Under the pieces are notes generated by a model that saw only the letters and a list, made by a program, of their open reading frames with translations, searched no databases and had not been told where the DNA came from. A DNA stretch of 58,884 nucleotides, filler included, from Platydemus manokwari (lineage: Eukaryota), in NCBI GenBank assembly GCA_037951405.1. It is 6 parts of 6 records of this genome, joined end to end, with 100 filler letters (N's around TTAATTAATTAA, not from the genome) between each part and the next. Parts side by side here need not be neighbours in the genome. Positions count along the whole stretch, not along the records: positions 48,611 to 58,884 come from JBBMOY011150771.1; 5 more parts are not named here. One strand, given 5' to 3'. Of this stretch, positions 9,390-58,884 are shown in pieces (the stretch's first letter is position 1; every line of letters starts with the position of its first letter). Made by a program: the position numbers and the translations under genes.

Positions 9390-9720
9390 GATAGTTCTCG
9401 CCAATTTTCAATATCTATCAGTTGACCTACTTTGACATATTTTTGAAAAATTTAATTTTTAAGAGATTTTAAAGGTTTAGTTTATTTAATATTTGATTTC
9501 TAACAAAACTATATTGCTTTTACATATCTGAATAAAAAGTTAAAAATGTTTTACTGAATATGATTATATTAAATATATAGTTTGTTGTTATAATATCCAT
9601 AAATTTAAAATTCTATTAGGTGTATTAGTATGATTCCGGCTTTTTTTTAAAAAATAAAAACATTTTTTAAAATATTTATTTAATGAAATTCAATCAAAAT
9701 ATTTTCCATTTGCAGATATG
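9390..9720 (-). repeat. interspersed AT-rich repeat family A, inverted copy
   Basis: Reverse complement matches the aagtaggtcaa..ttgaaaatt.gcgag and aaatcaaatattaaata blocks of the copies at 20.7, 21.5 and 25.2 kb. Confidence 0.6.
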
Positions 9721-20720: not shown

Positions 20721-21000
20721 TATTGCAAAAATCTATAGTTTATTTAATTATATTCTTTAAAAATATTTTAAATTTTTGATTCATGTACTCAATAAGAATT
20801 TTAGCTGTTTAAAATAAAATATTAAATAGAGTAAAACCTCAAAATCTCTTAAAATTTGATTATTTGATAAGCGGATCAAAGTAGGTCAAATTGTACTTTA
20901 TTGAAAATTAGTGAGGACCCCTTTTTTAGAATTAGAAACAAACTGAAAGATAAAGTAATTTTTTAAAAATAAACATGCCAGGAGTTTATTAAGTCTTTTT
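20721..21000 (+). repeat. interspersed repeat family A copy
   Basis: Begins tattgcaaaa.tctatagtttatttaatt; shared blocks with the 21536 and 25209 copies. Confidence 0.8.
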
Positions 21001-21535
21001 ATAAATTAAAAAAAATTAATTTCAGAAATAAAAAAAAAGATAAAAAAAAACTTAAAAATAAAACTAAAAAACTAAAAAAATTATTATTATAAATTCGATG
21101 ATTTCTTGATTTCTTCACTTTTCTATTTCAAAGTCAAGATGTGACAATAATATAGAAAAACATTACCAAAAAGGCATCGAACTTAACAATTAAAATATCA
21201 CTTTATATTTAATTGATGGTGAATAAAGCGGATTTATTGGGGGTCTTATGTTATCGCTAGAAATCATTCTAAATGCTTCTTGATAACCGAGACATTTATA
21301 CTCAATATTGAATCGACAGAAAATTGTGATTGTTGTGTGCTGATAGAATTTAGATTGAATTTCGAATCCAAAATATGATAAAAATATTGTTATAAATAAA
21401 TTTTAAATAAATAAATAATGCATGGAAAATAATTACGAAACATTTTTTCTTAATTTAAGCTGAATTTATATTACTTAATTAAAATGTTAAGTTAAAAAAG
21501 TTAAACAAGCGTTCTAAAAGGAAATTTTAAATTTG

Positions 21536-22010
21536 TATTGCAAAATTCTATATAGTTTATTTAATTAAATTCTTTAAAAACATTTTGAATTTTTTATTTT
21601 AATTCCTAGGAAGAATTTTAGTTGTTTGAAATCAAATATTAAATACATTAGAGGTTCAAAGTCTTCTAATTATTGATTATTTGATAAATGGATTAAAATA
21701 GGTCGAATTTCTAATTTATTGAATTTTTAACATTAAACGCAAATTGAGAGATACTTTAAATTTTAGAGTTATTTTATAAAAATAAACAATGATAATATTA
21801 AAGATGTTTGTATTAACTAAGTCGATTTATAAGCGAAAAAATTCAAATTTAAAAACACAGATAACCATTAAGAAGTGTTGTAATTAGAATAAGAACTTGG
21901 TTTTAAAACTATGTTTTGTTCCTATTAACTGAATTAAACTATAAATTATCTCATGCGTGAAAATTAATTATTACGAAAGTAGGTCAAAGAACCCTTTTCT
22001 TAATTTAAGC
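21536..22010 (+). repeat. interspersed repeat family A copy
   Basis: gtattgcaaaattctatatagtttatttaatt... through ...ttttcttaatttaagcc aligns with 25216-25760. Confidence 0.85.
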
Positions 22011-22530: not shown

Positions 22531-23102
22531 ATGATTAGAAATCTATTAACGATTTGTAAAAGAGGTATGAAAAGTTTTTATTGCTAATAACTTATTAAAA
22601 TCATCTTATCGTCTCTCAGTTTCACCAAGACAAATAACAAAAGAAAACAGAAAATTTTTACACCGCAATAACAACACACAAAAATTGAATAATTCATCAA
22701 AGATTTTGTTGGTTGGAGGATCTGTTGGAATTTGCGCCGGTGCATTTTATTATTTATTAGATAAAAATGAACTGAAAGCAAATTGTTTCAATTCTGCAAT
22801 TTGTTCATCGGTTCTGAAAGCGCAAGATTCCGTTTATTCCCCCACCAAAAAACACGCTCTGTATTTAACTATCCATTTGAATCCCGATGCTCCTACTAAA
22901 GATATTGTAAAGGTCGTTGGCCAGATTAAGAAATATATCGATATTATTTCACCGAAAGATTTGCGAGATGATGATAATGAAATCCTTGCCGGTGTCGGAT
23001 TTGGTCCTAATTTTCTAGTTAAAGCACGACCACATAAAAAATCGGTGAATAATTTTTCTCATCACACCAGAAAAGGTCAACACGGATCCATGCCAAGCAC
23101 TG
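22531..23102 (+). CDS. DyP-type (dye-decolorizing) heme peroxidase, 5' exons, with putative mitochondrial presequence; remainder lost in or after the N-gap
   Basis: Exon 1 22531-22564 (MIRNLLTICKR), 55-nt GT-AG intron, exon 2 22620-23102 ending MPST G|GTAATC. KKHALYLTIHL..EILAGVGFGPNF..KGQHGSMPSTG matches the N-terminal ferredoxin-like half of YfeX-like DyPs (VGFG..., MPST.gD). The catalytic GxxDG exon is not visible. Confidence 0.7.
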
Positions 23103-23161
23103 GTAATCAATTGATTGCGATATATATAACTAAATGAAATCATTTTTTATTTTACAGTTTG

Positions 23162-23355: not shown

Positions 23356-25208
23356 TTTAATTAAAAATGATGTTTTACTTCATTTTGTTTCATCAGCAAC
23401 ATTACACACTAAAACAAACCAATTGAATGCTGAAGGTAGTTGTTCATCTATTTTCATTATATTTTCTCATAAATTAATAAAAATATAGTTCCGATTTGGA
23501 TGTTTTATTATTAAACCAAAATCACTTCCTAAAAAAATGAAAAATAAATACATATAACGAGTGATTCCAATATTATCCATTGGTGACATCGACGAACTCA
23601 TGAAACAATCTATTTTTTATGGTTTAATATTTCTTATTCGAGAATTATTGGTGGTTGTCAAAAAATGAAGGTGATATTGATATTTGATGACAATAGCTAG
23701 AAGATTAATGTGCGCTGCCTTAGATTGTTGTGGGGAAAATAAGAAGATTATTTTGAGATACAGATCAATCTATATTTGGGAGAAAATTCATTTTTAATTA
23801 TAACGATGGTCGTATGCGTTTTCTGACAGAAGCAAAAATTTTAAATTGACAGATGAATCTTGATGAGTGGCATTTATTTTTTTTTAATCTTCTAACAATC
23901 ATTTCAGAACAATTAGAAAAGATAAATTCGGAAATCGAACAAAAGAAAAATTAGATAGAAGTTGTTTTAAACAAGATGTTGGTGCGCAAGTATATCAATT
24001 TTAAAATGTTTCATATTGTGTATTAAAGGAAATTTTAAAGCAGTCTTACATCAGTTAATTGACGAAATTTACTTCTCGATTTCTAATGAGTCAAATCTGG
24101 CTCTTCTTCTTAATGTGAATTGCCCACTAAGTCAAAATTCCGAGTAGGTTGTATCTAAAATTTAGAACAGGTATTCAGTATTAATTTATATAATTTATAT
24201 GAACCCAATGACAAAGCTAAACATCAATAATAAGCTTCAATTAAAACAAAACAATATATAAATAAATTATTGAGAAAATCTAAAATAACCAGAATTTGTA
24301 ATGTTTTTTGTTATTTTATTTAGAGTTTCCACGTGATTGGTTCAAATCGCATGTTACGTTATAATCATCTACAGTTTCTTCATAATTGTGTAAATGTTCT
24401 CTTCAAGATTTGTGTCGGGCTCATTAAAAAAATGTAAAGGATTAGTTTTATTTAAAGAATTTAAACTTTGTGAATGAAATACTCACGATGATAATCGGTA
24501 GAAAATTTATTTCAAAATTTATTACTCGTTATTGATTGTTACATGTCACCATCAGAAATTTTGGATTTTATGGCAGACTACTCCCACTTAAATTCGTACG
24601 TTTTATAAAATTCATACTCGTACGTATATTTAATCGTGATATTTAGTCTTTTACTTTTTGATTTATTGGATTTAGAAATTTCTTTCTTCGAAAATTTACA
24701 TCCCATCGGTCTTCTATTTTATATACAAAATAACTCGTAAAATATGATTTATCTTTGAAACTAAAAGTAAAATAAAATTTAATAATCATGAAAATATTCC
24801 TCCATTTTATCAAATGTTATTTTTTGGAATTTCAATTCATGGAGAAACACAATTACTTTTTAAAATGTTATTAACTCCGATTTTTTTAGATTTTAATAAT
24901 TTAAAAATATTTTTCAAAAACTGTTTATCAAGAAGAATATCAAATTTTATGCCATGGATTTAAAAATGGTTATCAAAAGAAAGAATAAACAAAAATATTT
25001 GAAGACCGAGATAAATTTGATGAAAATTTGACCATTGGAGAAATTTGTGCAAAAATGTTTCCACAAAAACTATATCCATAATTATAGGAAAGAAATTTAA
25101 AAAGAAATTAATATTATTTGGTGATTGTATAAGCGAAAAACTCAAGTCATTCTGAGAATTATTGGCTAAAGTTACGAAAAGGGGTCTTAAAATCAAATTT
25201 TAAATTTG

Positions 25209-25760
25209 TTGAGTGTATTGCAAAATTCTATATAGTTTATTTAATTATATTCTTTAAATACATTTTGAATTTTTTATTTAATTACTTAAGAAGAATTTAA
25301 GTTGTTTAAAATCAAATATTAAATAGATTAGAGCTTCAAGAAATCCTAAAATTTGATTATTTGAAAAAGGGATCAAAGTAGGCCGAATTGAAATTTATTG
25401 AAAATTAGCGAGGACTCCTTTTGATATTAGAAGCAAATTGAGAGATATTTTCAATTTTTACAATTATTTTATAAAAAATAACCAATGATATTATTAAACA
25501 TGTCAGTAATTAACTAACTCGATTTATAATTAAAGAAAATTAAATTTAAAAACTCAAATAATCACATAGAAGTGCTGTGAATCAGAATAGGAACTATTTT
25601 CTGACTCTGTTAGACATCCTAAAAGTGAGATATTAACTGAATTATACGAATAAACCAAACATCACAATTATACATAAAGTAAGTTATAAAATTATTTCAT
25701 GTGCGAAAATTCAATATCAGGAAAGTAAATCAAAGCACCACTTTTCTTAACTTAAGCCGA
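25209..25760 (+). repeat. interspersed repeat family A copy (longest)
   Basis: Aligns over ~500 bp with 21536-22010 and partly with 20721-21000. Confidence 0.85.
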
Positions 25761-28870: not shown

Positions 28871-29234
28871 TTTGTCGTGTGGATATACGTGCGGTTAAAT
28901 CGATATTTCGAGTATCATTTTCACAATGGGACCCAAAGGTCGAATTTGGACTCAAATCGAAAATCATTATTTTATCTTTTTATCGAATGGATTGAACGAT
29001 CAATTTATCTAAGTCTAGCGCACACCTCTCAAATATTGATTGGATCGTCATTATCAGATTTATCGATTTTATCTTCTTTACCTTAATTGAATATTTTTTA
29101 TTCATTTTGGCTACTGTTTTGATTGATTATTTGAAATTTATCGATTTTATGGATTTAGCAATGAATTGATGGAAGGTGGGGGTATTCCATTATTTGATTG
29201 ATGTTATCATTTATTGATTATGATTTTGCTGGTT

Positions 29235-29594
29235 GATGGTCACAGATATGATGGTCACAGATATGATGGTCACAGATATGATTGATGGTCACAGATATGA
29301 TAGTCACAGATATGATAGTCACAGATATGATGGTCACAGATATGATTGATGGTCAGAGATATGATGGTCACAGATATGATTGATGGTCACAGATATGATT
29401 GATGGTCACAGATATGATAGTCACAGATATGATGGTCACAGATATGATGGTCACAGATATGATTGATAGTCACATATATGATTGATGGTCACAGATATGA
29501 TAGTCACAGATATGATGGTCACAGATATGATGGTCACAGATATGATTGATGGTCAGAGATATGATGGTCACAGATATGATTGATGGTCACAGAT
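29235..29594. repeat. minisatellite, unit GATGGTCACAGATAT (15 bp) with +GATT (19 bp) and GATAGT/CAGAGA variants
   Basis: More than 20 direct tandem units running into the contig end. Confidence 0.95.
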
Positions 29595-37365: not shown

Positions 37366-37797
37366 TGTTTGGTCCTCAACAATTAATTAAACTCTTACTC
37401 CAAAATCGAAGGCAAATAATATTTTTTTCTTGTGTACTAATCAGTACACTTACACAAACTATACTGCACAAAATATCAACCAAAACTTGGCTTCCAACTG
37501 GCATCTTTACATCGATTTTTATATTTGCGACCTGTGTTTAATTTTTTGAGTCACGTATCATATTTTGATTTGATATTTGTTTTTCTATGTTCCTATTGGG
37601 TTTTTAAGTTTTTGCATGAGTGGGATTGGTCAATCTCTATGTGTGCGTTTCTGTGCGGCTATGCCCCTTTTTCCTATGATTGGTTGATTGTTATGCCTGT
37701 ATGGTTGTGCAGACATTTCAGATGTTAAAAGTGCTTAAACAAGAGTTCCAAGGTTCTATAATGGTATCTTTTGTGTGATGTTCTCCTCTACTCAACA
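37366..37797 (-). mobile_element. LTR (diverged member of the TGTTGAG...ACA family)
   Basis: Starts TGTTGAG and ends ACA on the minus strand; shares ccttggaac, gattgaccaatccca and actccaaaat blocks with the LTRs at 47496 and/or 54128. Confidence 0.7.
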
Positions 37798-45099: not shown

Positions 45100-48000
45100 T
45101 TAAATATCACCGATTTTGATCACTATTTTAAAAAAGTGTTACGTCCGGGCGACACCGATGTATCCTAAATATTAGTCCCAGTTTATGAACCTTATTCAAA
45201 TGCCTAAAATTGCTGACACCAGTGGTAATGAGCAATGATATATGATCCCTTTTTAATTAATAACTAAATCTAATAATTACAAATTTTAGAAAAATATGAG
45301 GATATTTACTCTAAGGTTTTCCAGTAGAATACTGAGCATATGCGGAATTTTGATCTGTTTGATCGAAATCTCGATGTTGATATTATTGCACTTCTTCGAA
45401 TGCAACAAAAAGTGAATTCAAATATTGTGTCAGTGGTAATTGTGGATGCTGCCTTATATAGGTAGCGTTTAGTCATCTGTGGAGATTCGCTACGACTATA
45501 ATTTAATGTCGTGCACTTAATATCTTGGAGAGGAGTTCATTTATTCAAACGCAGTATTTGCTCTGTTATTAGTTTAATAAATTATCTTTTAATCGAGTTA
45601 TTGACATTAATGATTATTATCATTTCTACAAAGTTATTTATAAAATATTAATTAAAAGTTCCATTTATTAAACTTAAAATTTTCCAAATTATTAATTAAT
45701 ATTTTGTTACGTTCGGGTCTTATTGATTTTATTGTTTTATTAAGCTTCATTCTATTTGAAATCACTGTTGTTTTAATCGGTCTCTATGAGATCTTGATTA
45801 AGGCCACAGGTGTAATTTACCTTATTTTGTTGAATCTTCACATCGTACAACCATATTGTGTGAAGATAATAAGGGTGGCAATAGTGATATGTATTAACTA
45901 CCAGTAACCTATTTAAATTACTAATTGTGCTAAAAACAATGACAATGAACAATGATTAATGACCCCTATTCAATTAATAAATGATACTTGCTACTACAAA
46001 TGTTTATTAATAATTGACACCGATACAAATTGATTAACAATAATATAATAAAAATTACAAATGGATTTTGATACTACACTATATATTAACTTATAACGGA
46101 CCTTAGCAACTCTTGGATTAAGAAAACGGTTCATAAACTTCCTCTCGTGGAGCTAAACCCTTTACCTTTCGAGATGATTGGGTTAAAACTCAATAATAAG
46201 AGATAATTGATACGATATATAATATAAATTAGTATTTTACTCGAATGGATCTTACTGTGAGGTCTTCCAGTAAAATACGGGGCATATAGGGAATCCTTAT
46301 CTCCTGTACTAAGTGGTCTCTATTATGCGGTTCTTGAATACAAAATAATGTCTTCTCCGGTGTATAACAATCGATTTAATATGTAATTGTGCCTTCAGTA
46401 ATGTGTTAATGTGGCAGTGTTAATTTTGACTGTTGCTTTATGTGGGCAGCGGTGAATCACTCGTAGATATAATCTGCGATTAAATCTAATACCAGTGAAT
46501 TTATTATTTTTACTGGAATTTTTCTACCAGTGAGAGAAATTCTAAGATAAAATTTATTATACAGAGAAATATTCTCTCTGATCAAATTCAATCGGCTGAA
46601 TAATTTATTCAGTGACTGTATTCAATGTGTGAGATAATAGGTGACAATTTATTTTTCAATGTTGTTGCGCGATAATATATTGTGTGCTGTTATTTTATGA
46701 ATACATCCTCATTTAGGGAATTTAATGGCTTTTTCTTGTATGGGGTTTTTAAGGTATTGTTATTTCAGATATTTATAGATAATAATTATTATAAATACTA
46801 ATATAATATAATATTTTAAGCTGATTGCATTCAGATGTTCTAAGAGTTGTCAAATTATAAAAAATACATGTTGATTAAATAAAGATTAATACAAAAAAAA
46901 TAAAGGCACGTGTCATACGTATTGCCATGTGTAACATATATGATTGTTATAAACATTTATACAATATTGTCTGAATTAATATTTTGGTCAAAACCTTAAC
47001 AATGTTATCTAATTTACTTTATTTTGCAAAATTCTATTATTAATGAAATATCTTAAACCATTTTAATTTAAGTGTGATTTAAAAGTGTTAGAAGATAAAA
47101 ATAAAATATAAAATATATTAATATTGGTTCAAGAAACAATTGCTCTAAAGAATTTTTGTATTCTTTACTAAAGCCGAAATTCTTTTCTTCATCTTCGAAT
47201 GCCATCTGTTCGATAATATTACTTATCACAGAATCCTCTTTCTTGTTGAAAATTATTATTATTATTGACTATTACCTACTTTTTCTGCGGTTTCTAATTA
47301 TTTTAGAGTTCCTTGAATTATCTTAAATCATTTTTTATTAGTAATCTGTTCTACCATGGTATGATAATTATTAATTGTTCTTAAATTTTAGTCACCTTAT
47401 GTCAACATTTTTGATTATTTTGATCATATCATCTGCTTTTTTTATTATCATTTTCGTCTATATGTATTAATCAATTACTTTTCTTATTAAATAGTTGTTG
47501 AGTGAGATGAAATTCTGCAAAAAGAAAAACGAAATTACATCTTGGAACCTTTGTTTTGGCACTTTGAACATTTGCATGCCTATACAATAAGCCAATCATA
47601 GCGAAGCTAGAAGGTGAATTACAATTGGGAAAAAGGGCATAACTACACAAAACACACATTTAGGGATTGACCAATCCCATTCATGTAAAAATCTAAAAAC
47701 CCAATAAGAATACAGAAAGACAAACACCAAATCAAATTGTAGTACAACATGACACGGAGGAATACACACAGATCGAGAGTATAAAAACCAATGTAAAGAT
47801 GGACAACTGCCAATTGAAAGCCAGATTTAGGTAAATACACTGTGATTGTGTGTTGATTATTGTGGTTGTATATTGATTAATATATGTAATTTTGGTCTCA
47901 GGAGTTTTGTAATTCATTGTTATTCAACATAATCTTGCTTTTGTTCCTTTTCTATTTCTTGTATCAGTGTCTACGGTTCTCACACATGTGTTGGTTCTAA

Positions 48001-48330
48001 CATTTTTCTCCTGTTTCTTAGGTATCTGGAACATATAATTAGCATTCACATTGGATTTTCCAGCTCTATATATTATTTTAATATTATGGTTCTGAATCTT
48101 CAATGCCCATCAGATTAATCGACTGATAGTATCTCCATAGTTCATCAATCTTTCCAACGATTTTTATCCCTTTTTAGTACTATTTCTGTTTCATAAATGT
48201 ATTGTTGGAATAGATTTAGAGCGAATATTATGCATAAACATTCATTTCTCAGCCACCTTAGTGATTGAATAGAGTATGCTATGACATGAGTATTAGATAT
48301 CTTCAATGTATGAAAAAAATCTTTCAAACT
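45100..48330 (-). mobile_element. decayed Gypsy pol (RNase H region) followed by two tandem copies of an unknown ORF domain; interrupted by a solo LTR
   Basis: HVIAYSIQSL..ECLCIIFALNLFQQYIYETEIVLKRD (48300-48160) and LKIQNHNIKIIYRAGKSNVNANYM (48100-48030) match Gypsy RNase H motifs; downstream same-strand relics QEIRIPYMPRILLEDLTV (46310-46250) and KQIKIPHMLSILLENLRV (45360-45305). Confidence 0.65.
47496..47929 (+). mobile_element. solo LTR, 434 bp
   Basis: TGTTGAG...TTCAACA termini; aligns with 54447-54128; no PBS or PPT adjacent; near-TSD TAGT/TAAT; lies antisense within a pol relic. Confidence 0.8.
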
Positions 48331-48610: not shown

Positions 48611-48626
48611 TATTTTATTATCATAC

Positions 48627-48777
48627 CTGTCGGACAATTGAAATGTGGCATTGCTATCGCCCATTTTCTCAGTTGGTCAATTTGTTCATCAATATGTTCT
48701 GGATCTTCTTTCAAATTATCAACAGCAAATTGTTTTGATGATTTGCTAATTTTATCATAATCATATTTATCAGTCAT
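48627..48777 (-). CDS. CRAL-TRIO (alpha-TTP/clavesin-like) paralog, exon 1 only (cut by contig end)
   Basis: MTDKYDYDKISKSSKQFAVDNLKEDPEHIDEQIDQLRKWAIAMPHFNCPT, near-identical to exon 1 at 56433-56283; ~400 bp of upstream sequence also duplicated. Confidence 0.85.
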
Positions 48778-50229
48778 TATCACTGTGTCGATTCTATATA
48801 ATTAAGAAATTATTCACAAAATCGAATCAAACTGATATTTTATAGAAATAAAATAACACACACACCATTGAATGTGAAACACTGAAATAGTTATAAGGGC
48901 ATTGTGATTACTGAGTGCTTATTTTTTACGGCGACAAGCTAATGTAACAGACAAGTGGTCAAATTTTACAATTTCATGGAAATGTACAAATCGATATTAT
49001 CGATATTTTTTAATGAAAGCCTTTTTGTAAATCCAATACGTCACGAAAGCATGTACTTTCAAACAATTTTTCATTCCAGTTAATTAAAATCTTTTCAATA
49101 TTAACCCCATATTTCAGAAAATATATTTTGTCATTGGCCAGCAATAATTTATTTTTCACTGTATCTGAAATTCTTTTATTTCCATGATCTCTGAGATATG
49201 ATTCAGCATAACGAAACCTAGTGTACCAGTTGATTGAAGTTATTTTCTAAAATGGTTTTTGTATTTCAGGTACTTGTCGATATAGGTATCTTATATACTT
49301 TGGTTGTAGAGCATTATGGTATGGCTATTTAATATTGTTTAACACATGTGATATTGTTGTTCTATTCATAATTCCACTATATTGATTTCTCAACAGATAG
49401 ACTGAAAAGGTTCTTATCATTTTAATATCGATTAACACTTTCATGCTTTACATACTGGTTGTATTACTGGGGATAATATTTAGTTTAATATTTGATTAAT
49501 ATTTGACCACACCATTTACATCGTTGCGATACTCATTAATAAGCAGAAGAAACAACTACTGAAAAGCTTGCCAAAACAAACACAGAATTTCAATATTTTT
49601 AAAACCGTTAACAGAAAATATATAATAGGTACAAAAGGGTGGCTGTTGATATACTGTGCAAAAATTTCAAATCGAATGATATCCAGGAAGAGTGGGCTAA
49701 ACAGTAATTTGCAGGACCATTAACGATAAAAAATCTATAATGGATGTTGTTATCGAAATTATCTGAATTTCGGAGAACAAAAGATTCCCTACTTTCGAGA
49801 TAACGGTACACAGATTTGTTTAGGCAGTAATGAAAAACGGAATATAGCAGAATTCCATCATTGGAAAAATCTTTAGCAAGTGATCACGATTAATTGGGCT
49901 AAGAAAGCTAAACTAGACATAGATATATCTGAAGTAAGGCGTTCTATGAAGGCCTTCATGAATCAAAAATAAATTTATCGGCAGTCGAAGCAATCCGTAG
50001 AAATAGCTCTAAAATTTAGAAGATGCCACTGGAGGAAAAATTCCCCAAAAGTGAGGACTGATACCTCAAATCATTCTAAATTGAGGAGCACAATTGATAA
50101 TTATGATAATTATAAAAATAAACTTTTAAAAAATAATAAATTTACTAAATAAACAAATTGATTAATGCTTTAAATTCGTCAAATTTTTCAATCTTGAAAA
50201 TAAGAAAAAGCTATGTGTAAAATAATACA

Positions 50230-51170
50230 TTTAAAGTGACCAGGCACAATTGCCAAATTTGTGAAAATCGTTAAAAACCGTTAGAGCTTTCAAAGCACAT
50301 AAAAGATCTAAGAATCATATTGAAAAATATAATGCTTTAAATATTATATAACAACGCAATTCAATAAATTTCAGAGTTATGTAATAATGCTAAAATGGGA
50401 GATATTTATTAAAATTAATAAGTATTTTAAAACTATATTTACAAAAAAGAAGATTGTGTAAGAAATTCTGTAAAAAGGAATAAACAAAATGTAAAACTAT
50501 AAAATTTAGAAAACGAGGAGTATCCCATTATGTATATATCAACAGTTTCGAAAATTTTTTGAAGAAGGAAATAAATTATAATCTAAACCTCGATGAAAAA
50601 TTAAATAATTGTGACAAATAATATGTGGACAAGATAGGGAAGGGTAATAATGAAAAATGTCGATAATAACATGTAAAAATTTAAAAATTACAATCATCGA
50701 ATAACTATTCCATTTATAATAGCTGTAGAGATTGAATGTCTTGATATAGATATATTTAAGCCTACGTTGTATTTTAAATGAATTAAGTTTATAATTCAAA
50801 TTAAATTCAGATTTTATATAAAATGATATTTATATAAACTTGAATTGATTTGTTTAAATGTTTGTATTTAAATAGATTTTTGGTGTATTGACTTTTCAGT
50901 ACCTTTTTAATGTTTGGTTTTTAAAATAGAAGCGGATAACAAAGTCAAACGATAATTCTGCAAAAATGACAAAAAGCGTGATTAAAATCATAAATAAACA
51001 ACTACCTTCCTGTATTTATTTAAAATTAATTTCTAGATATCAAGATGTAATTAATAATGAAAGGAAATTATTTCAAAGTAAAGATTCCTTGAAAGAATTT
51101 ATAAAATTGATTTTGAAATTTATTAATTTTCAAGAAATAGATGGCTTCATTTACTTCTTTAATATATAAA
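50230..51170 (+). mobile_element. decayed Polinton pPolB-region fragment
   Basis: HNCQICE..AFKAHKRSKNH (C2H2-like) and KIINKQLPSCIYLKLISRY..KLFQSKDSLKEFIKLI resembling the KH.P.s....ivs.y....ly.G.d....Fi segment of Polinton polymerases. Confidence 0.45.
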
Positions 51171-51383
51171 TAACCTGCATGAATAAGGTCAACTACAAAA
51201 CTTTGAATAATAATTGTCCCTTTACCTGATGCATAACTTCTATCTGCTATTGAAAATTTACGCTTATTAATGTAAGTTTAGACACATTTACTTTATTTTA
51301 TGAGAAATGAATTCCTGGAACATATACCTTATTATTTTCAAATACTAATACAGATCATAAAGTAATATATTTTATATTTCCTT

Positions 51384-52850
51384 TTATAAATAGTTTACAC
51401 TTAAGTGTTGCTTTATCAAAGTTGACTTTTTAATGACGTATTCTTTTACTTGCACTCTAATAAAATTTGATTCCTGATATAGAAAATAATGCTTATTTTT
51501 GCTACTAGGAATTTTTATCGGATATGCTTCTGGGCATTCCGTTATATCCATTAACAAATAAATTTTTCCCATTTCCGTTTTAGAGCAATTGTATGCAATT
51601 AAGGCTCTAACTTCGTTACCGACGCTAAATATCGTGATCATCATAAATATTATGGCTTTTCTCTAAAATTTTAAAGATAACAGTCCACTTCTCAATATTT
51701 TACTTTTCTTATATTTTGATTTCATTAAATATATTTGATTTTTATTATTTCTTAATTCAATTTTATTAAATTCCGTATTTTCGTTTTTAAAGATAACGCC
51801 TACATGATTATTGTTATGATTATTAGTATCAAAATATTGATGAAATTGCAAGCCAAAAGCTGCCGTTTAAATGTCGTACGTAACATCATTTTATGCAAAT
51901 TGGCTCCTTTATATTCTCATTAATAATATCTTGCTCGTGAAAAACTCGAGGTTAATTTTATTTGCTTTTCCAATAACACATCCATATCTCAACAAATATT
52001 CATCGTCGTGTAAATTTTACCACAATATGATAAGATAATAACTGCTTCGTTTCTCAACTTTTCTGAAATTCTACTTCTGATTCTCTTTACCTTTATACAC
52101 CAATGCTCTTTGAAATTCTCCTGACTTCATCAAACTGATCTCAAACGGAGGTAGATTTAAACCTTTCTTTTTCCACATTTTTCCACACAACGTAACAATG
52201 CTTCTGAAAGAAGAATTAATAGGTAAACATTGTTCTATATACGGAACTAAAAAATATATTAACTCACCCAAATTACGAAACATTGATATATTTTCTCTGA
52301 TAATTTACAAAATTTTCACTATTTCGCTAAAATTCAATGGCTCCTTCTTTAAAAGCGTGCTCAGCTGTTTTGCATTTCTGTAGAGTTCTGCCTTTCTCCT
52401 ATACATCTTTTTCCTTTTTCACAACAATATCATTTTGTGGCACGATGTCATAAATTATCACATAATCATCATCACGTAGAATTTGATTTAAAAACGTAAT
52501 CTGGCTTCTGATATATCGAACTCTTGAAAAAGAATTTAGTTTTACTTTAATCAAATCTCGTATACAATTTTCAACAAAAATCTCCAAATCTTTTCGTTTA
52601 TAAGTAACCGCTATAAAATCTAACAATTCCGTCATTACCTTCATAAATCCTGAATTAATTCCTCTACTCCTCAAAATCTGCGAACACATAACCGTACAGT
52701 ATTCATTTTCATTTCCGCGTAAATTAGAAAGTTTACGACTGTCCGTAACCGTATTCCAAATTTTTCTCGAAATTTCCTCAAAACGTATCATACAAGTCTC
52801 TAATTTTATTTTCCAACTCCTCAATTTTTTAATAATCTCATTATCATCAA
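51384..52850 (-). pseudogene. decayed ORF: unknown ~400-aa region fused in frame to a signal peptide and a chuvirus/gB-type (class III) glycoprotein N-terminus
   Basis: AIIFMMITIFSVGNEVRA|LIAYNCSKTEMGKIYLLMDITECPEAYP...YFLYQESNFIRVQVKEYVIKKSTLI matches the hydrophobic-signal + L.(G/A)YDC....sLlDv.eC....iQllQ..eF..vkV.qC.I pattern of chuvirus-like G proteins. ORF 51851-51663 is in the same frame, separated by one TAG. Confidence 0.6.
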
Positions 52851-53051
52851 TTTTCTCACCACCACTATCATAATCTTCATTAATCTATCTCAACAATTTG
52901 TTTGTTTTGATCATGAAATTAACCGTATCTTTACCTCCTAGCCTCTCAATTCATCTTTCCATTTTATTTTTCATCATCAATACTGCTGATTCCCATGGAT
53001 TTTGTGATTTAGATTGTCTGAAATTAACTTTAAATTGATAGTCTTGAAAGC

Positions 53052-53995
53052 TTACTTTCTTTCTGAAAGATGATTACTGAAATCTACTTGTGTTTCGTAG
53101 ACATGATCTGGAAAATGCTCGAGGTTACCCCAGGAGAAGCATTTAATATGATCCTGGGTGTTAACCATGTCTCGTTGGGGTGATTTTGTGAAGATTCCTG
53201 TTTTGCAGTCTCTCCAAAGTTGACCGCATGTAAAGCAGTATCTGTTGCCTCGAACTATTGAATCTTGCCATTTAAAAATTGGAGAAGTGGAACTGCTTCG
53301 AGATTTTGATAGATTCTCTCTGGCAAATGAAAGTTTCGATTGATTGGCATAATGTTCAGTTCGGTTGCATTTAAAACATGTCACCCATAGCTGCTTCTTT
53401 GACGTAATTTCATGAATGATAGCGTGGATTTTGGATGGGTATTGTCGATGGGTTTTGTGCGTGATGGCCTTTCAATTTTACACAAAAAGGAGAGATATCT
53501 GTGGCATATATGACTTATTGATGTAGATTTCATTTCCACTCTCATAGCTCTTTTGATGTGTTCGTCGCAGGTTGTATGATCGACGAGACTGAGCGCTGTA
53601 CTGATGTGTTGATGCATTCCTTTCAAAAATTGATCCTCAACTACTTTTTGCGTTTGTGCTGGCCACTCCGCTTTCGGTCCGAATGTTTTTTTCTGCATGT
53701 ATTGATAGATAGTACGCAAAATCGCCTCCGGTTTGACCGGTTTTCTGCGATCTTGAGAAGGATTTTTGACAAATTATGAAGCCAACATCTGATAGGGCGT
53801 CTTTCATTGCTGTTCATTGGGCAATGTTTCGTCTGTCGATTTAATTGTAGACTTCTCTTGCTGCGTTTTTCAAATAAAGAGGAAGTCTTTGGATCATCGT
53901 CCTTTTAGTCCAACCATATGCCAATGCATCCATAAAATCCACGAGGTCAGCTGGGTCTCCACCATACTGTTCGACGGGAAGCTTTTGACAATTAA
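53052..53995 (-). pseudogene. Gypsy-type gag relic with CCHC knuckles
   Basis: LPVEQYGGDPADLVDFMDALAYGWTK; VVEDQFLKGM..I..AL; knuckles TCFKCNRTEHYANQS, YCFTCGQ..WRDC, IKCFSWGNLEHF; frameshifted. Confidence 0.8.
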
Positions 53996-54110
53996 CAAAA
54001 TCGTCTTGTGGAACTAGTCGTATCTGGTGTTGAATTGGCTGTTAGCCTGAAAAAGATTGGTTCTCTGAATCCTGGTTCTCTGAATACATAATCGTAAAAG
54101 TGTTCGAATG

Positions 54111-54447
54111 AAGGCTCACCAAGTAATTGTTTTGATATAAATTAATAACAAACTTCTGACTCCAAAATAATGTATATTAGTCAATATATAGCTACAACAA
54201 CTGAATTAAAACCTCAATAATTAAACACAAGCACAATGATTTTATTAAAATCTTGCTTTCATCTAGCACTTGTCTATCTTTACATTGCTTTTTATACTCG
54301 CGATCTGTGTGTATCTCTCTGTGTCATGATGTACTACAATTTGAATTGGTGTTTGTCTTTTTGTTTTTTTATTAGATTTTTTGGTCAAAACGAGAGTTCC
54401 AAGGTGTAATTTCGTTTTTCTTATACAGGATTTCATCTAACTCAACA
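54111..54447 (-). mobile_element. 5' LTR (54447-54128) plus primer-binding site (TGGTGAGCCTT, 54121-54111)
   Basis: TGTTGAG...AAAACA LTR homologous to 47496-47929 (with an internal deletion), followed 6 nt later by a TGG-starting PBS (tRNA-Arg-like) and then gag. Confidence 0.8.
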
Positions 54448-55074
54448 ATATTCACCGGATTTCAAATTTAATCAGTTATTGTAATTTTTCCAAATCTAGA
54501 ATATCAATAAAAATGTTTTTCACCAATCAAACCGGAATAAAAAAAATGAAAAAAAAATGCTAAATTTTATTTCAACACAAAAATTTTCGTTTCGAGGCGG
54601 TGGGATATCCCTCTCCTCATTTTTAGTTGGTACGTTTCGTTAGAAAGAAAAAGCAAATCAATTGTTAACGAATGATTACTATTATTATTATAAGACATAT
54701 TATAAAGGAATAAAATATTACTGGATTATTGATTTCGTTCAGGTACACTTTGAAAAATATTAATAGAGATATCCAGATTCAAAACTTTAAGAATAATTCG
54801 ATTAAAATTATTTCGACCTCAATTGAGGTAAAAGATTGTAGAATCTATCAGAGATTAACTAAGACAAAATGAATAGAAGTTAAAAAAACATGATAAAATT
54901 AATAAAATTATAAATTGTAATTTTAAAAATTTCTTTAATTAAAAATTAAGTCACCCATTGGTTCTAATATTGATTTATATTTAAACATCACAATCACCCA
55001 GAATAAATATTGTTATCAATGTCACGTTAATAATGGAAATCGGCTTGATAGTTAATTTTATCAATCAATAATTA

Positions 55075-56433
55075 TCAAAAATAATCTGGATATTCATCTA
55101 AATAATCCAATGTTTCTTCGTGACGAATCGATTCATCTACAGTAATATCCTTTAAAGGATGTCCATCTTTATAATAACTTAGGAATTGATCTTTAAATCT
55201 TTCTGTAAAAAAATGAGTAAATCATCAATTAAAATGAAAATATAAATCACCAGTATGTGTTTTTAAAGGAACTCCACACCCACCATGTTCGATTGGTAAG
55301 AGTTCTTTCAATCCAGGAATATGTTCACAAGCTACATCCATATCGTTTGTTAGAATAATCTGAGATTAATAATTTATATAGTAATAATACGCCAATCAAC
55401 AAACAAAACTAATGATAATAGTAAAATAGTATTCAAATTATATATATAACTATAAACATGTTCGACAAAACATAAACTATTTACGCACTTTGTTATCACT
55501 TTGTTTCTTCAGATGAAAAGACCACATTTTGAACGCTTCATCATAAATTTGAGATGCATTATAAAAAACATACACTTTTAATCGCCACGGGAAAATATCC
55601 TGGAAGTGATTTCATTGAATTTATAAATCTATAATCTTTAAAATACATGAAGGCACCTTGCCATTTCTATTAATAATTTATTATCAGTCCATGCTTCCGC
55701 TACCTTTGGTGATGCGCCCGTCATATCAGAGAATAATCGTACTCCGTGAATTTGAGTCTCTTCTTCGGACATAACAACCTCATATCCCATAAAGACCAAT
55801 GGAATCATTTGAGATATTGGAATCGTTTCAGGATTCCAGAATTCTGAAACACAAATGTAGATCAACTCAAATAGTTACAAGAAATGAAAGATAAATCCTC
55901 AACCATCACAATCCATATCATTACAATTATATGTTATCATAATCTAATGTTATTACTAAATGGAAAAAATATAATTAAATCTCCATCTTCATTCCTCCCC
56001 AATGGTGAAAAAAGTCTAAATATTTCACGATTTTTATAAATATTTGAATAATTATTAGTCTACTGTAATTCTAGAAATTCATTAATAATCGCGTCATCAA
56101 TGTTGGCATAATTGAAATATTGTGGAGTTCCTCTTTGAGAACATCTCACTGTACAAAACGAATCCAATTGTTTTTGAGCTGTTTTCAAATCAAATTTCGC
56201 TACTCTTAGAAATCGTAGTAAGAATTGAGAATCTGTTCAAATCATTTATAATATAATGATGAATATTATTTTATTATCATACCTGTCGGACAGTTGAAAT
56301 GTGGCATTGCTATCGCCCATTTTCTCAGTTGGTCAATTTGTTCATCAATACGTTCTGGATCTTCTTTCAAATTATCAACAGCAAATTGTTTCGATGATTT
56401 GCTAATTCTTTCATAATCATATTTATCAGTCAT
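55075..56433 (-). CDS. CRAL-TRIO/Sec14 lipid-binding protein (alpha-TTP/clavesin-like), complete 7-exon gene
   Basis: Exons 56433-56283, 56232-56064, 56015-55957, 55843-55647, 55599-55489, 55359-55251, 55202-55075; motifs DSQFLLRFLRVAKFDL, EETQIHGVRLFSDMTG, DIFPWRLK, LLPIEHGG. Confidence 0.92.
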
Positions 56434-57199
56434 TATCACTGTGTTGATTTTATATAATTAAGAAATTATTCACAAAATCGAATCAAACTTATATTTCATA
56501 GAAAACACACACACCATTGAACGTGAAAAACTGAAATAGTTTTAACAGTACTGTGATTGCTCAGTGGTTATTCTTTACGGCGCTAGGCCTATGTAAGAAA
56601 CAAGTGGTCAAATTTGACAATTTCAAGGAAATGTGCAAATCGATATTATTGATATTTTTAATGAAAGCATTTTCGTTAATCCAACACTTCACGAAAGTAC
56701 GTATTTACAAATTAGTCCTCATTCCAATTAATTAATATTTTCTAAATATAATCCTTTTTTCTCAGAAAAAAATATTTTATCATTGGTCATCGATAATTTA
56801 TTTAAATTCCAACCATGAAAGAAACAAAAAACTCATTTAAATGCAACATTAATTAATAATTAGTGGCAATAATTTGTTTTCTAGCTCAGCTAAAAACAAT
56901 TTAAGATGTGCCCAGCATTGAAACTAGTAAGTTCCACAATGCCATCTTAACTAATTGACTCGATTATGTTGAGAAACTACTTTTAACTATTTAAATTCAA
57001 ACTTGATATTTAAATTCAATTGATTATTGATTTGTAACATATAAATCTTCAGTGGATTTGTAAACCAGACAAAAGAGTTTATTAATTTTTGTATAAATCT
57101 TTACCAATATGGCTTATGACACTTCAGGAGAAGTCTCTCTAAAACAAGTGCCTGGAACAAAAACGAAAGACGATGTAAAAGAGGTACTCGAAATAAGAG

Positions 57200-57340
57200 T
57201 CATAATATCATGAGAACAAACCCAATTCATCAATAGTCATCAAAGATGAATAACGTATCCAATACGATGTATGTGGATTACCGAAGATTCAAGTGAGTTA
57301 CAGAAAAATTTATTTTCAATATGGCCGATATTTACCAACA
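57200..57340 (+). mobile_element. Gypsy RT fragment
   Basis: MYVDYRRFK*VTEKFIF matches the RmcvDYR.LN.vT..d.fP motif. Confidence 0.5.
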
Positions 57341-57779
57341 TCTGGACCGATTGATGTATCCTTAAGGTATTTATGAACTGTAAATGAGTTTATTGTTATA
57401 TTATATCTTTTTGATTACTGTGTTGATTATTTACCAGTTTTTTCCTCTGTATTTTGCACATATTTTTTGAGAGAACCAGATATACCGTTTTTCTTTGCAG
57501 TTCAGTAATAGTAAATTAGGAGGTTTTAGTAGTACTATCTGTTACGGTTAATTCTTTGATACTTTAAAAGATATTTTTGGCCAATAAAGTCTCAAATTGT
57601 TACCAATTTTTTATATATGATGTTTGGTTTTCATCGTAATCACGTTTGTATTGTTTTTGATGAAATTTTGCTTTTATGTTTACTAACCTTTGTTATTTCC
57701 TTAAACTGCCTTTCATTTCATTCTCATAACTGGTTTTTTGAATCTGAATTAATTTTATTTAACAATTTAAAATAATCTA

Positions 57780-58700
57780 TCATCCCAATGAATATTTCGG
57801 CAACATTAAGAATTTTGGGTACCTAAGATAGTATATATTTGGGCGTTAAGATAGTATTTTTCTAGAAAAAATTAAAAAGTTACCAAGGCTTGAAATTGTC
57901 ACCACATATACATTGTAACATATTCATTGCAGCTTTCTTGAAATGATCTGTACTTAAATGAACTTTTGATTATAATCTCTATTATTTCAATATTTTCCTA
58001 AAATCCATAATATCATTACTGGGATTATTTTATCTTGTTGAATTAGATGTCACAATTGTTTTCTAGCCAAGTTAATATTTTGTGCCGAATATACTCCTTT
58101 GTTTTTTACCTTGATTATCTATGCTATTTAGTCTTCTTTTCAATTCTAACTTTTTTGATGTTGCAATCATTTCACATGTGGTTATTCATTAATCCGTCGA
58201 TTTTATCGCAATTAAGCCTTGTTCTTTCGTTCGAAATTTAATAATATCTTTAATTATTTGTGGATAATATCGATTTTGTATTTTTCTGTGTATTTCTTTA
58301 GAATCAATTTTTGGCACCTTATGTTTATTCTTATCTTCATTCTTTTTGTTCAAAATTTCTTCTGTAAATCGTTTTCGACTAATGAAATTAAATTGCCCAA
58401 CTTTAGCAAATGTTAATTCATATTCATATAGGTCCACTCGGTATTTGATCATGATACGAGATGTGTGTCTTCCAATTGAAGTATTCGGCTGAACAAAAAT
58501 GATAGTGTATGATTATCTTCGTAAGTAAATAGAATTTATCTTGAAATCTTCTTCATTCTACTCTATATTCTCTTTCTTCTACCACAGAATCCATTGTTAT
58601 ATTCCATATTCTATACATTTCACTTTAATAGCGTCTTGATGATTGCTTCCAACCTACTACAGCTACTCTATTTCATATAACTATTCCTGATTAAGTTTCG
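57780..58700 (-). mobile_element. decayed Gypsy pol (RNase H to integrase zinc-finger region)
   Basis: HTSRIMIKYRVDLYEYELTF.KVGQFN..ISR resembles R..Rw.l.L.EY.f.i.y..Gk.N..aD.lSR; LGTQNS..IHW resembles hlGi.kT...y.W. Confidence 0.55.
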
Positions 58701-58884
58701 GATTTCAATAATAATTCTTTTCAATATAGCGATATAGAATATTCCATTCCACGAAGTCTTAGAGAAATTTCTGATAATAATGAAAGTACACAAAAAAAAA
58801 TTCCTAGTTTATAAAATAAATAATATTTTTTTTTGCTATTAATAAAACCCAATATAAAATGGTTCTATAGAATCTGATGAAGTA

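Follow-up and report, generated by a model that had tools for sequence, protein, structure and literature searches.

Genomic setting and layout of the element

The window is a 58,884-nucleotide stretch of Platydemus manokwari DNA (GCA_037951405.1) made up of six joined AT-rich contigs, with a G+C content of 28%. Among the host genes of the window are those for CNOT1, Egalitarian, CRAL-TRIO proteins and a protein with fibronectin type III domains. Named matches of the Egalitarian protein are 100% spiralian. In a tree with 23 named references, it falls on the flatworm side, outside the starred annelid/nemertean/brachiopod/bryozoan group, as a long branch that belongs to no starred set. These comparisons make a flatworm host likely. 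The element described here lies on the last of the six contigs (positions 48611–58884). Tandem CRAL-TRIO genes occupy the minus strand on either side of it, at about 56460–55070 and at 48800–48611. These paralogues are 7.65 kb apart and 87% identical across 545 nt, and their upstream spacers have no common sequence past 56803/49154.

Several other features were recorded in the window. A dispersed repeat family with 70–82% identity is present in several contigs (9393–9612, 20721–20971, 21497–21897 and 25168–25595), and a tandem repeat lies at 29230–29594. An ORF at 22571–23137 (plus strand), which by eye resembles a DyP-type peroxidase, has no match in Pfam at E 0.01. Downstream of the point at which the element breaks off, about 49300–50300 (plus strand) resembles decayed coding sequence by eye, and a Pfam search of this region in all frames gave no match. 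A scan of genome contigs returned a single locus, L001, which was judged to be a chance match and has no env, pol or gag profile match.

The earlier note described a minus-strand series of LTR, primer-binding site (PBS), gag, accessory region, signal and glycoprotein start, and each of these features is present, the second as a PBS-like site (Table 1). The 5′ LTR carries an internal deletion of about 130 nt. The candidate PBS opens with the same six bases as that of a Macrostomum errantivirus (PMC13524379 supplement); no tRNA gene was found within the window. A 3′ LTR of the element was not found in the window by nhmmer, and no target-site duplication was found for the element.

Two related LTRs, both probably solo, lie in other contigs. 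The LTR of the element is identical to the one at 47496–47929 at 239 of 301 positions (79%) and to the one at 37797–37366 at 187 of 284 (66%), and those two agree with each other at 273 of 406 (67%). Target-site duplications were sought at both lone LTRs, with no exact match. The three related LTRs reported earlier are present in three contigs, but because they are only 66–79% identical they do not by themselves imply intact copies in the host. Their divergence points to old, separate subfamilies. A Gypsy RNase H remnant at 48288–47968 (minus strand; pol HMM E 5e-8, Pfam E 0.0085) runs head-on into the opposite-strand LTR at 47496–47929, and the two are probably nested or rearranged elements.

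The gag capsid region, which matches that of a long relative, P0154, also matches a gag HMM (E 7e-4). It is followed by CCHC zinc knuckles, none of the three retaining a complete CX2CX4HX4C. Since the element has no RT of its own, the superfamily call is made from gag and from the relatives. The gag match together with the Ty3-like Pol of P0154 supports the proposal of a Gypsy-type LTR element. Taken together, the homology blocks contain 11 in-frame stops and 6 frame changes; stop-free stretches are the signal plus env piece (90 codons) and an accessory stretch (161 codons). This copy of the element is dead.

Table 1. Positions, strand and basis of the features of the element, the related LTRs and the second remnant in the window
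Feature	Positions	Strand	Basis or remarks
5′ LTR	54128..54447	-	320 nt; TGT...ACA ends; TATA-like box retained
PBS-like site (candidate)	54110..54121	-	begins TGGTGA, 6 nt after LTR
Ty3/Gypsy-type gag capsid, decayed	53534..54005	-	tblastn with P0154 residues 47-212, E 1.6e-9
Three degenerate zinc knuckles	53100..53381	-	translation; zf-CCHC Pfam E 0.013, below cut-off
Accessory module 1: helical region, then probable partly deleted ubiquitin-like domain	52402..52980	-	
Accessory module 2: helical bundle and ubiquitin-like domain	51944..52367	-	P0006, hhalign
Decayed linker	51660..51941	-	4 stops
Internal signal peptide	51603..51656	-	hydropathy and position as in relatives; alignment
gB/chuvirus-type (putative class III) env ectodomain start	51413..51602	-	ends after ~60 codons
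Related LTR, probably solo	47496..47929	+	434 nt; contig 5
Related LTR, probably solo	37366..37797	-	432 nt; contig 4
Second, more decayed remnant: env middle and C-terminal pieces, in order, with internal gap	57903..58699	-	env HMM
Integrase C-terminal remnant, downstream of second env	57452..57749	-	8.3 bits

The accessory region and the start of the glycoprotein

About 440 codons of accessory sequence separate the knuckles from env. This decayed region had been noted as some 400 residues of unknown nature; it is present, but hhalign and the model of a database relative, P0006, resolve it largely into helix plus ubiquitin-like (UBL) modules, one well supported and one probable. The better supported is module 2. 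It shares 39% identity with P0006 across 130 aa, and hhalign gives it a probability of 96.9% (E 1.4e-10) against a five-sequence profile of the module. Searched against the PDB, the five-sequence profile returned mostly ubiquitin-like chains (best E 0.0012). Residues 90–165 of the P0006 model form a confident ubiquitin fold (Foldseek probability 1.0) that superposes with a Z of 9.4 and an rmsd of 1.6 over 74 aligned residues, and the Atlas agrees.

Module 1 begins with a helical stretch of about 110 residues without domain assignment, and its ubiquitin-like part lies at about 52590–52417. It matches P0020 by blastp (E 3.4e-5) and a UBL HMM that itself includes P0020 (E 6.7e-5), while its hhalign match is weak (probability 3%, E 0.014). 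A single-sequence model of the 161-aa accessory ORF is too poor to search with (pLDDT 51), and the same ORF as a query in the ESM Atlas gave no usable match. Module 1 is a probable, weakly supported second UBL, as in P0154 and P0020.

No HMM match to a Bcl-2-like domain was found in the window, where the linker is decayed; the profile missed P0154 too. Weak Pfam matches to Bcl-2-like domains precede env in five of the database hits (P0011, P0015, P0017, P0023 and P0024). Accessory content varies across the family, as P0019 has neither a UBL nor a Bcl-2-like domain. A Gly-Gly after the last strand is found in none of the five aligned UBLs. Ubiquitin-like domains that act as tags for cleavage at Gly-Gly are a pestivirus-like arrangement. 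The lack of Gly-Gly in all five speaks against that role and fits better with adaptor or decoy domains that stay an integral part of the protein. Literature searches found no published description of a tandem helix plus UBL module for compact elements.

Immediately before the YNC that opens the glycoprotein, hydropathy peaks at 2.74, and peaks of 2.15–3.42 occur at the same place in relatives (motif found in 10 of 11 tried). The earlier suggestion that env follows extra domains by way of an internal signal peptide agrees with the window and with its relatives. The env start matches PF24664 (Monjiviricetes_fusion) with E 5.6e-7 and 28.3 bits against a cut-off of 27, although only across profile positions 5–83 of 653, corresponding to the signal and about 60 mature residues. 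An env HMM matches the same segment at positions 7–86 (E 2e-20), and similarity ceases near 51413. This profile match, with 27 of 29 database hits falling here, agrees with the identification of a chuvirus/gB-type glycoprotein in the earlier note; the predicted class III assignment is based on the N-terminal ~60 mature residues. With the 92-aa env piece as query, a word-indexed search returned no homologues; an exhaustive search did find some.

Polyprotein layout in relatives and loss of the 3′ part

In the exhaustive search, the accessory-plus-env frame was compared with 1.84 billion proteins, giving 29 hits, of which 27 match env and the other 2 match accessory sequence. A Pfam scan covered 23 of the 29, six short hits being left out. 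All seven hits longer than 1000 aa have retroelement domains; in six of them these were recognised by Pfam, and in P0019 from a CCHC motif together with a weak match to protease. In the long relatives a single ORF encodes gag, accessory domains, signal, env, protease, RT, RNase H and integrase. P0154 (3700 aa) has gag, two CCHC knuckles, two helix plus UBL modules (residues 519–662 and 762–912), signal, env, two proteases, RT, RNase H, integrase and a tail, and the solved structure nearest to its Pol is Ty3 Gag-Pol (E 9e-130). Env stands ahead of protease in one ORF in all five hits with a Pfam protease, and also in P0154. Two to four copies of the aspartic protease occur in several relatives.

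A PR-RT-RH-IN pol is present in P0016, P0030 and P0154 and absent from the window copy. In the same three relatives, hydrophobic segments correspond to the signal and the env anchor. Their integrase is followed by a tail in which two hydrophobic segments surround a region that looks beta-rich by eye, which suggests a second membrane protein. The tail has no Pfam match, and no published description of it was found in literature searches.

The window env groups with P0008 and P0009 in an env tree (SH-aLRT 88, 64 columns, grouping not starred) built without P0021, P0023, P0024, P0025 and P0032, and without P0006 and P0020, which have no env. By eye, 104 of 111 residues of the P0008 env are identical to the published env of Smed_errantivirus_1 from Schmidtea mediterranea. 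In the predicted proteins P0008 and P0009, the env pieces are joined to host genes (MRP-L47 and FAD oxidase); these fusions are most likely gene-prediction chimeras. P0030, a gag-UBL-env-pol polyprotein, is deposited under a 'Flavobacteriaceae bacterium' MAG, and its source is probably a mis-binned animal contig.

The earlier note allowed that the accessory and env ORF might be an unrelated nested insertion. P0012, P0015, P0030 and P0154 refute this, since in each of them a single ORF encodes both that accessory module and env. The window copy may likewise have had a single gag-accessory-env ORF, judging from these relatives. Between gag (54005–53100) and env no pol match was found, and env sits directly after gag and the accessory region (52980–51660). 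Likewise, no pol, env or LTR remains were found at 49150–51400. Because pol follows env in the relatives, its absence here is a truncation. The copy is the broken front part of an LTR element that has lost everything past the start of env. Accordingly, two statements of the earlier note fall: the glycoprotein does not end the polyprotein, since relatives place it in the middle with pol after it, and the missing pol is not a native absence. We read the locus, with a probability of about 0.88, as a dead, 3′-truncated copy of a compact GAG-ENV-POL Ty3/Gypsy element with a gB-type env, related to Schmidtea elements and to Burro/GYPSM1.

The list of features drawn up previously did not include a second remnant, which lies at 58699–57452 on the minus strand. 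Its env pieces match HMM positions 131–204, 209–275, 492–544 and 546–565 at 7.6, 3.7, 7.1 and 4.6 bits, and all beat the best of 60 shuffles (0.9 bits). The score of the integrase remnant, obtained with a profile built from two sequences only, was reached by none of 100 shuffles (best 4.5), and 28 other tiles scored 2.3 at best. Although these scores are low, the second remnant appears to place env before integrase, matching the order in the relatives.

The two remnants could stem from a single old insertion rather than from two, each keeping a different part of it after duplication or rearrangement together with the tandem CRAL-TRIO genes. Both lie on the same strand, their env pieces do not overlap (HMM 7–86 against 131–565), and each precedes one of the CRAL-TRIO paralogues, whose similarity is given above. 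Against this stands the lack of anything shared by the spacers upstream of the paralogues past the points already given, and the contig ends at 58884. We consider a single insertion possible, at somewhat worse than even odds. This reading bears on the history of the locus and does not conflict with the truncated GAG-ENV-POL element.

A far less probable explanation is an element natively without pol, a non-autonomous LTR-gag-accessory-env unit mobilised in trans. Such an element would account for the empty intervals between gag and env and at 51400–49150. However, env itself is cut short, with about 60 of its roughly 630 mature residues left, and a 3′ LTR is lacking, so the loss of pol is part of a truncation; moreover, pol comes after env in the relatives and in the second remnant. 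These points make a native absence very unlikely.

Comparison with known elements and a possible life cycle

GAG-ENV-POL Gypsy elements with gB-type env are described from Platyhelminthes, Nematoda and Bryozoa by Chary and Hayashi (PMC13524379), whose operational sense of errantivirus is used here. Their examples include Smed_errantivirus_1-6 of group C1a, with an HSV/gB-type env. Like the platyhelminth members, the window element has a Gypsy gag and a signal-led gB-type env, with pol after env in its relatives. The Smed errantiviruses are reported as intact, with up to 215 copies (PMC13524379), whereas the window copy is dead and truncated. As that study selects intact ORFs and near-identical copies, the window copy, with its stops and its divergent LTRs, is a relic of the lineage rather than an intact member. 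The words 'ubiquitin' and 'Bcl' do not occur in the main text of PMC13524379, whose figures or supplements may annotate accessory domains, and the entry mechanism of gB-type errantiviruses is there called unknown.

The giant planarian Gypsy elements Burro/GYPSM1 are described as carrying two or three CCHC knuckles in their gag, along with a Ubi2/SUMO-like domain and BCL2. Their env resembles the fusion proteins of mononegaviruses and is placed after gag and before pol in the same frame (PMC6431247). The account of Burro in the same source gives an internal region of up to 25 kb, a polyprotein of about 4,900–5,100 aa and MATH, BIR, ankyrin, SMC and BCL2 accessory motifs, and it mentions decaying fragments of such elements in Dugesia japonica. 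BURRO1 transcripts are reported to rise after Piwi knockdown (PMC8532177). The window element shares with Burro/GYPSM1 a ubiquitin/SUMO-like domain upstream of env. It differs from Burro in that gag to env takes up about 2.4 kb and the accessory modules are all of the UBL kind; a Bcl-2 domain was not detected. Its short interval from knuckles to env is not that of a giant element with the Burro domain set, and none of the MATH, BIR, ankyrin and SMC Pfam families was matched in 8 translated pieces.

Anakin elements of mosquitoes are BEL/Pao elements with a chuvirus glycoprotein (PMC7642597, PMC10084718, PMC13524379), and they too are LTR elements bearing a chuvirus/gB-like glycoprotein. They raise the question whether chuvirus glycoprotein cDNA was recently captured by, or by chance inserted into, an LTR element with no relation to it, possibly one of the BEL/Pao type. 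The Pfam family matched here is named after Monjiviricetes fusion proteins, and such captures have been reported in arthropods (PMC10084718). Against this, the long hits are without exception retroelement polyproteins, a number of which carry the same UBL module upstream, and the relatives' Pol is of the Ty3/Gypsy type. Anakin further belongs to another superfamily and host; the window gag matches Gypsy relatives with Ty3-like Pol. We regard capture into an unrelated element as very unlikely. Very unlikely as well is domestication, in which a fragment of gag, UBL or env would now serve as a host gene or piRNA source; the stop-free env and accessory stretches might speak for it, set against the many stops and frame changes, knuckles that are all degenerate and an env without about 90% of its length. 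The Drosophila errantiviruses gypsy and ZAM are infectious env-bearing Gypsy elements (PMC13524379); they have an F-type env and gag-pol-env order, unlike the family in the window.

The compact GAG-ENV-POL element from which the copy derives would have worked as follows. The LTR would drive a single transcript with one long ORF, encoding Gag, knuckles, helix plus UBL modules, signal, Env ectodomain and transmembrane anchor, and continuing after the anchor, in the order shown in relatives, into protease(s), RT, RNase H, integrase and a tail. Going by hydropathy, the internal signal would send Env alone into the ER, probably with a cut by signal peptidase. Gag and the UBLs would remain cytosolic, and the Env anchor would bring Pol back to the cytosol. 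The element's own protease may then free the cytosolic domains, yielding Gag, Env and Pol in about equal amounts without splicing or frameshifting. By analogy, a class III Env could fuse particles with neighbouring or stem cells. We give roughly even chances to a role of the UBLs as integral adaptors or decoys directed at the ubiquitin-proteasome system of the host, as opposed to cleavage tags. After insertion, the window copy would have lost all beyond the start of env and then decayed neutrally.

The gag-env-pol layout is already published (PMC6431247, PMC13524379); what is added here is the annotation of tandem helix plus ubiquitin-like modules and a second remnant that appears to have the same order. 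The dead copy itself settles no open question. The finding gives Gypsy elements of gag-env-pol order and gB-type env one further host, and the tandem module annotation ties the compact Schmidtea errantiviruses to the giant Burro elements. It is conceivable, though unlikely, that the host retains an active compact one-ORF lineage, with tandem helix plus UBL modules and no Bcl-2, whose Gag-Env-Pol is threaded through the ER into enveloped particles; a second membrane protein might also be encoded beyond integrase, as in P0154, P0030 and P0016. If so, such a lineage would be a small and manageable model for how retroelements pass from cell to cell among the stem cells of flatworms.
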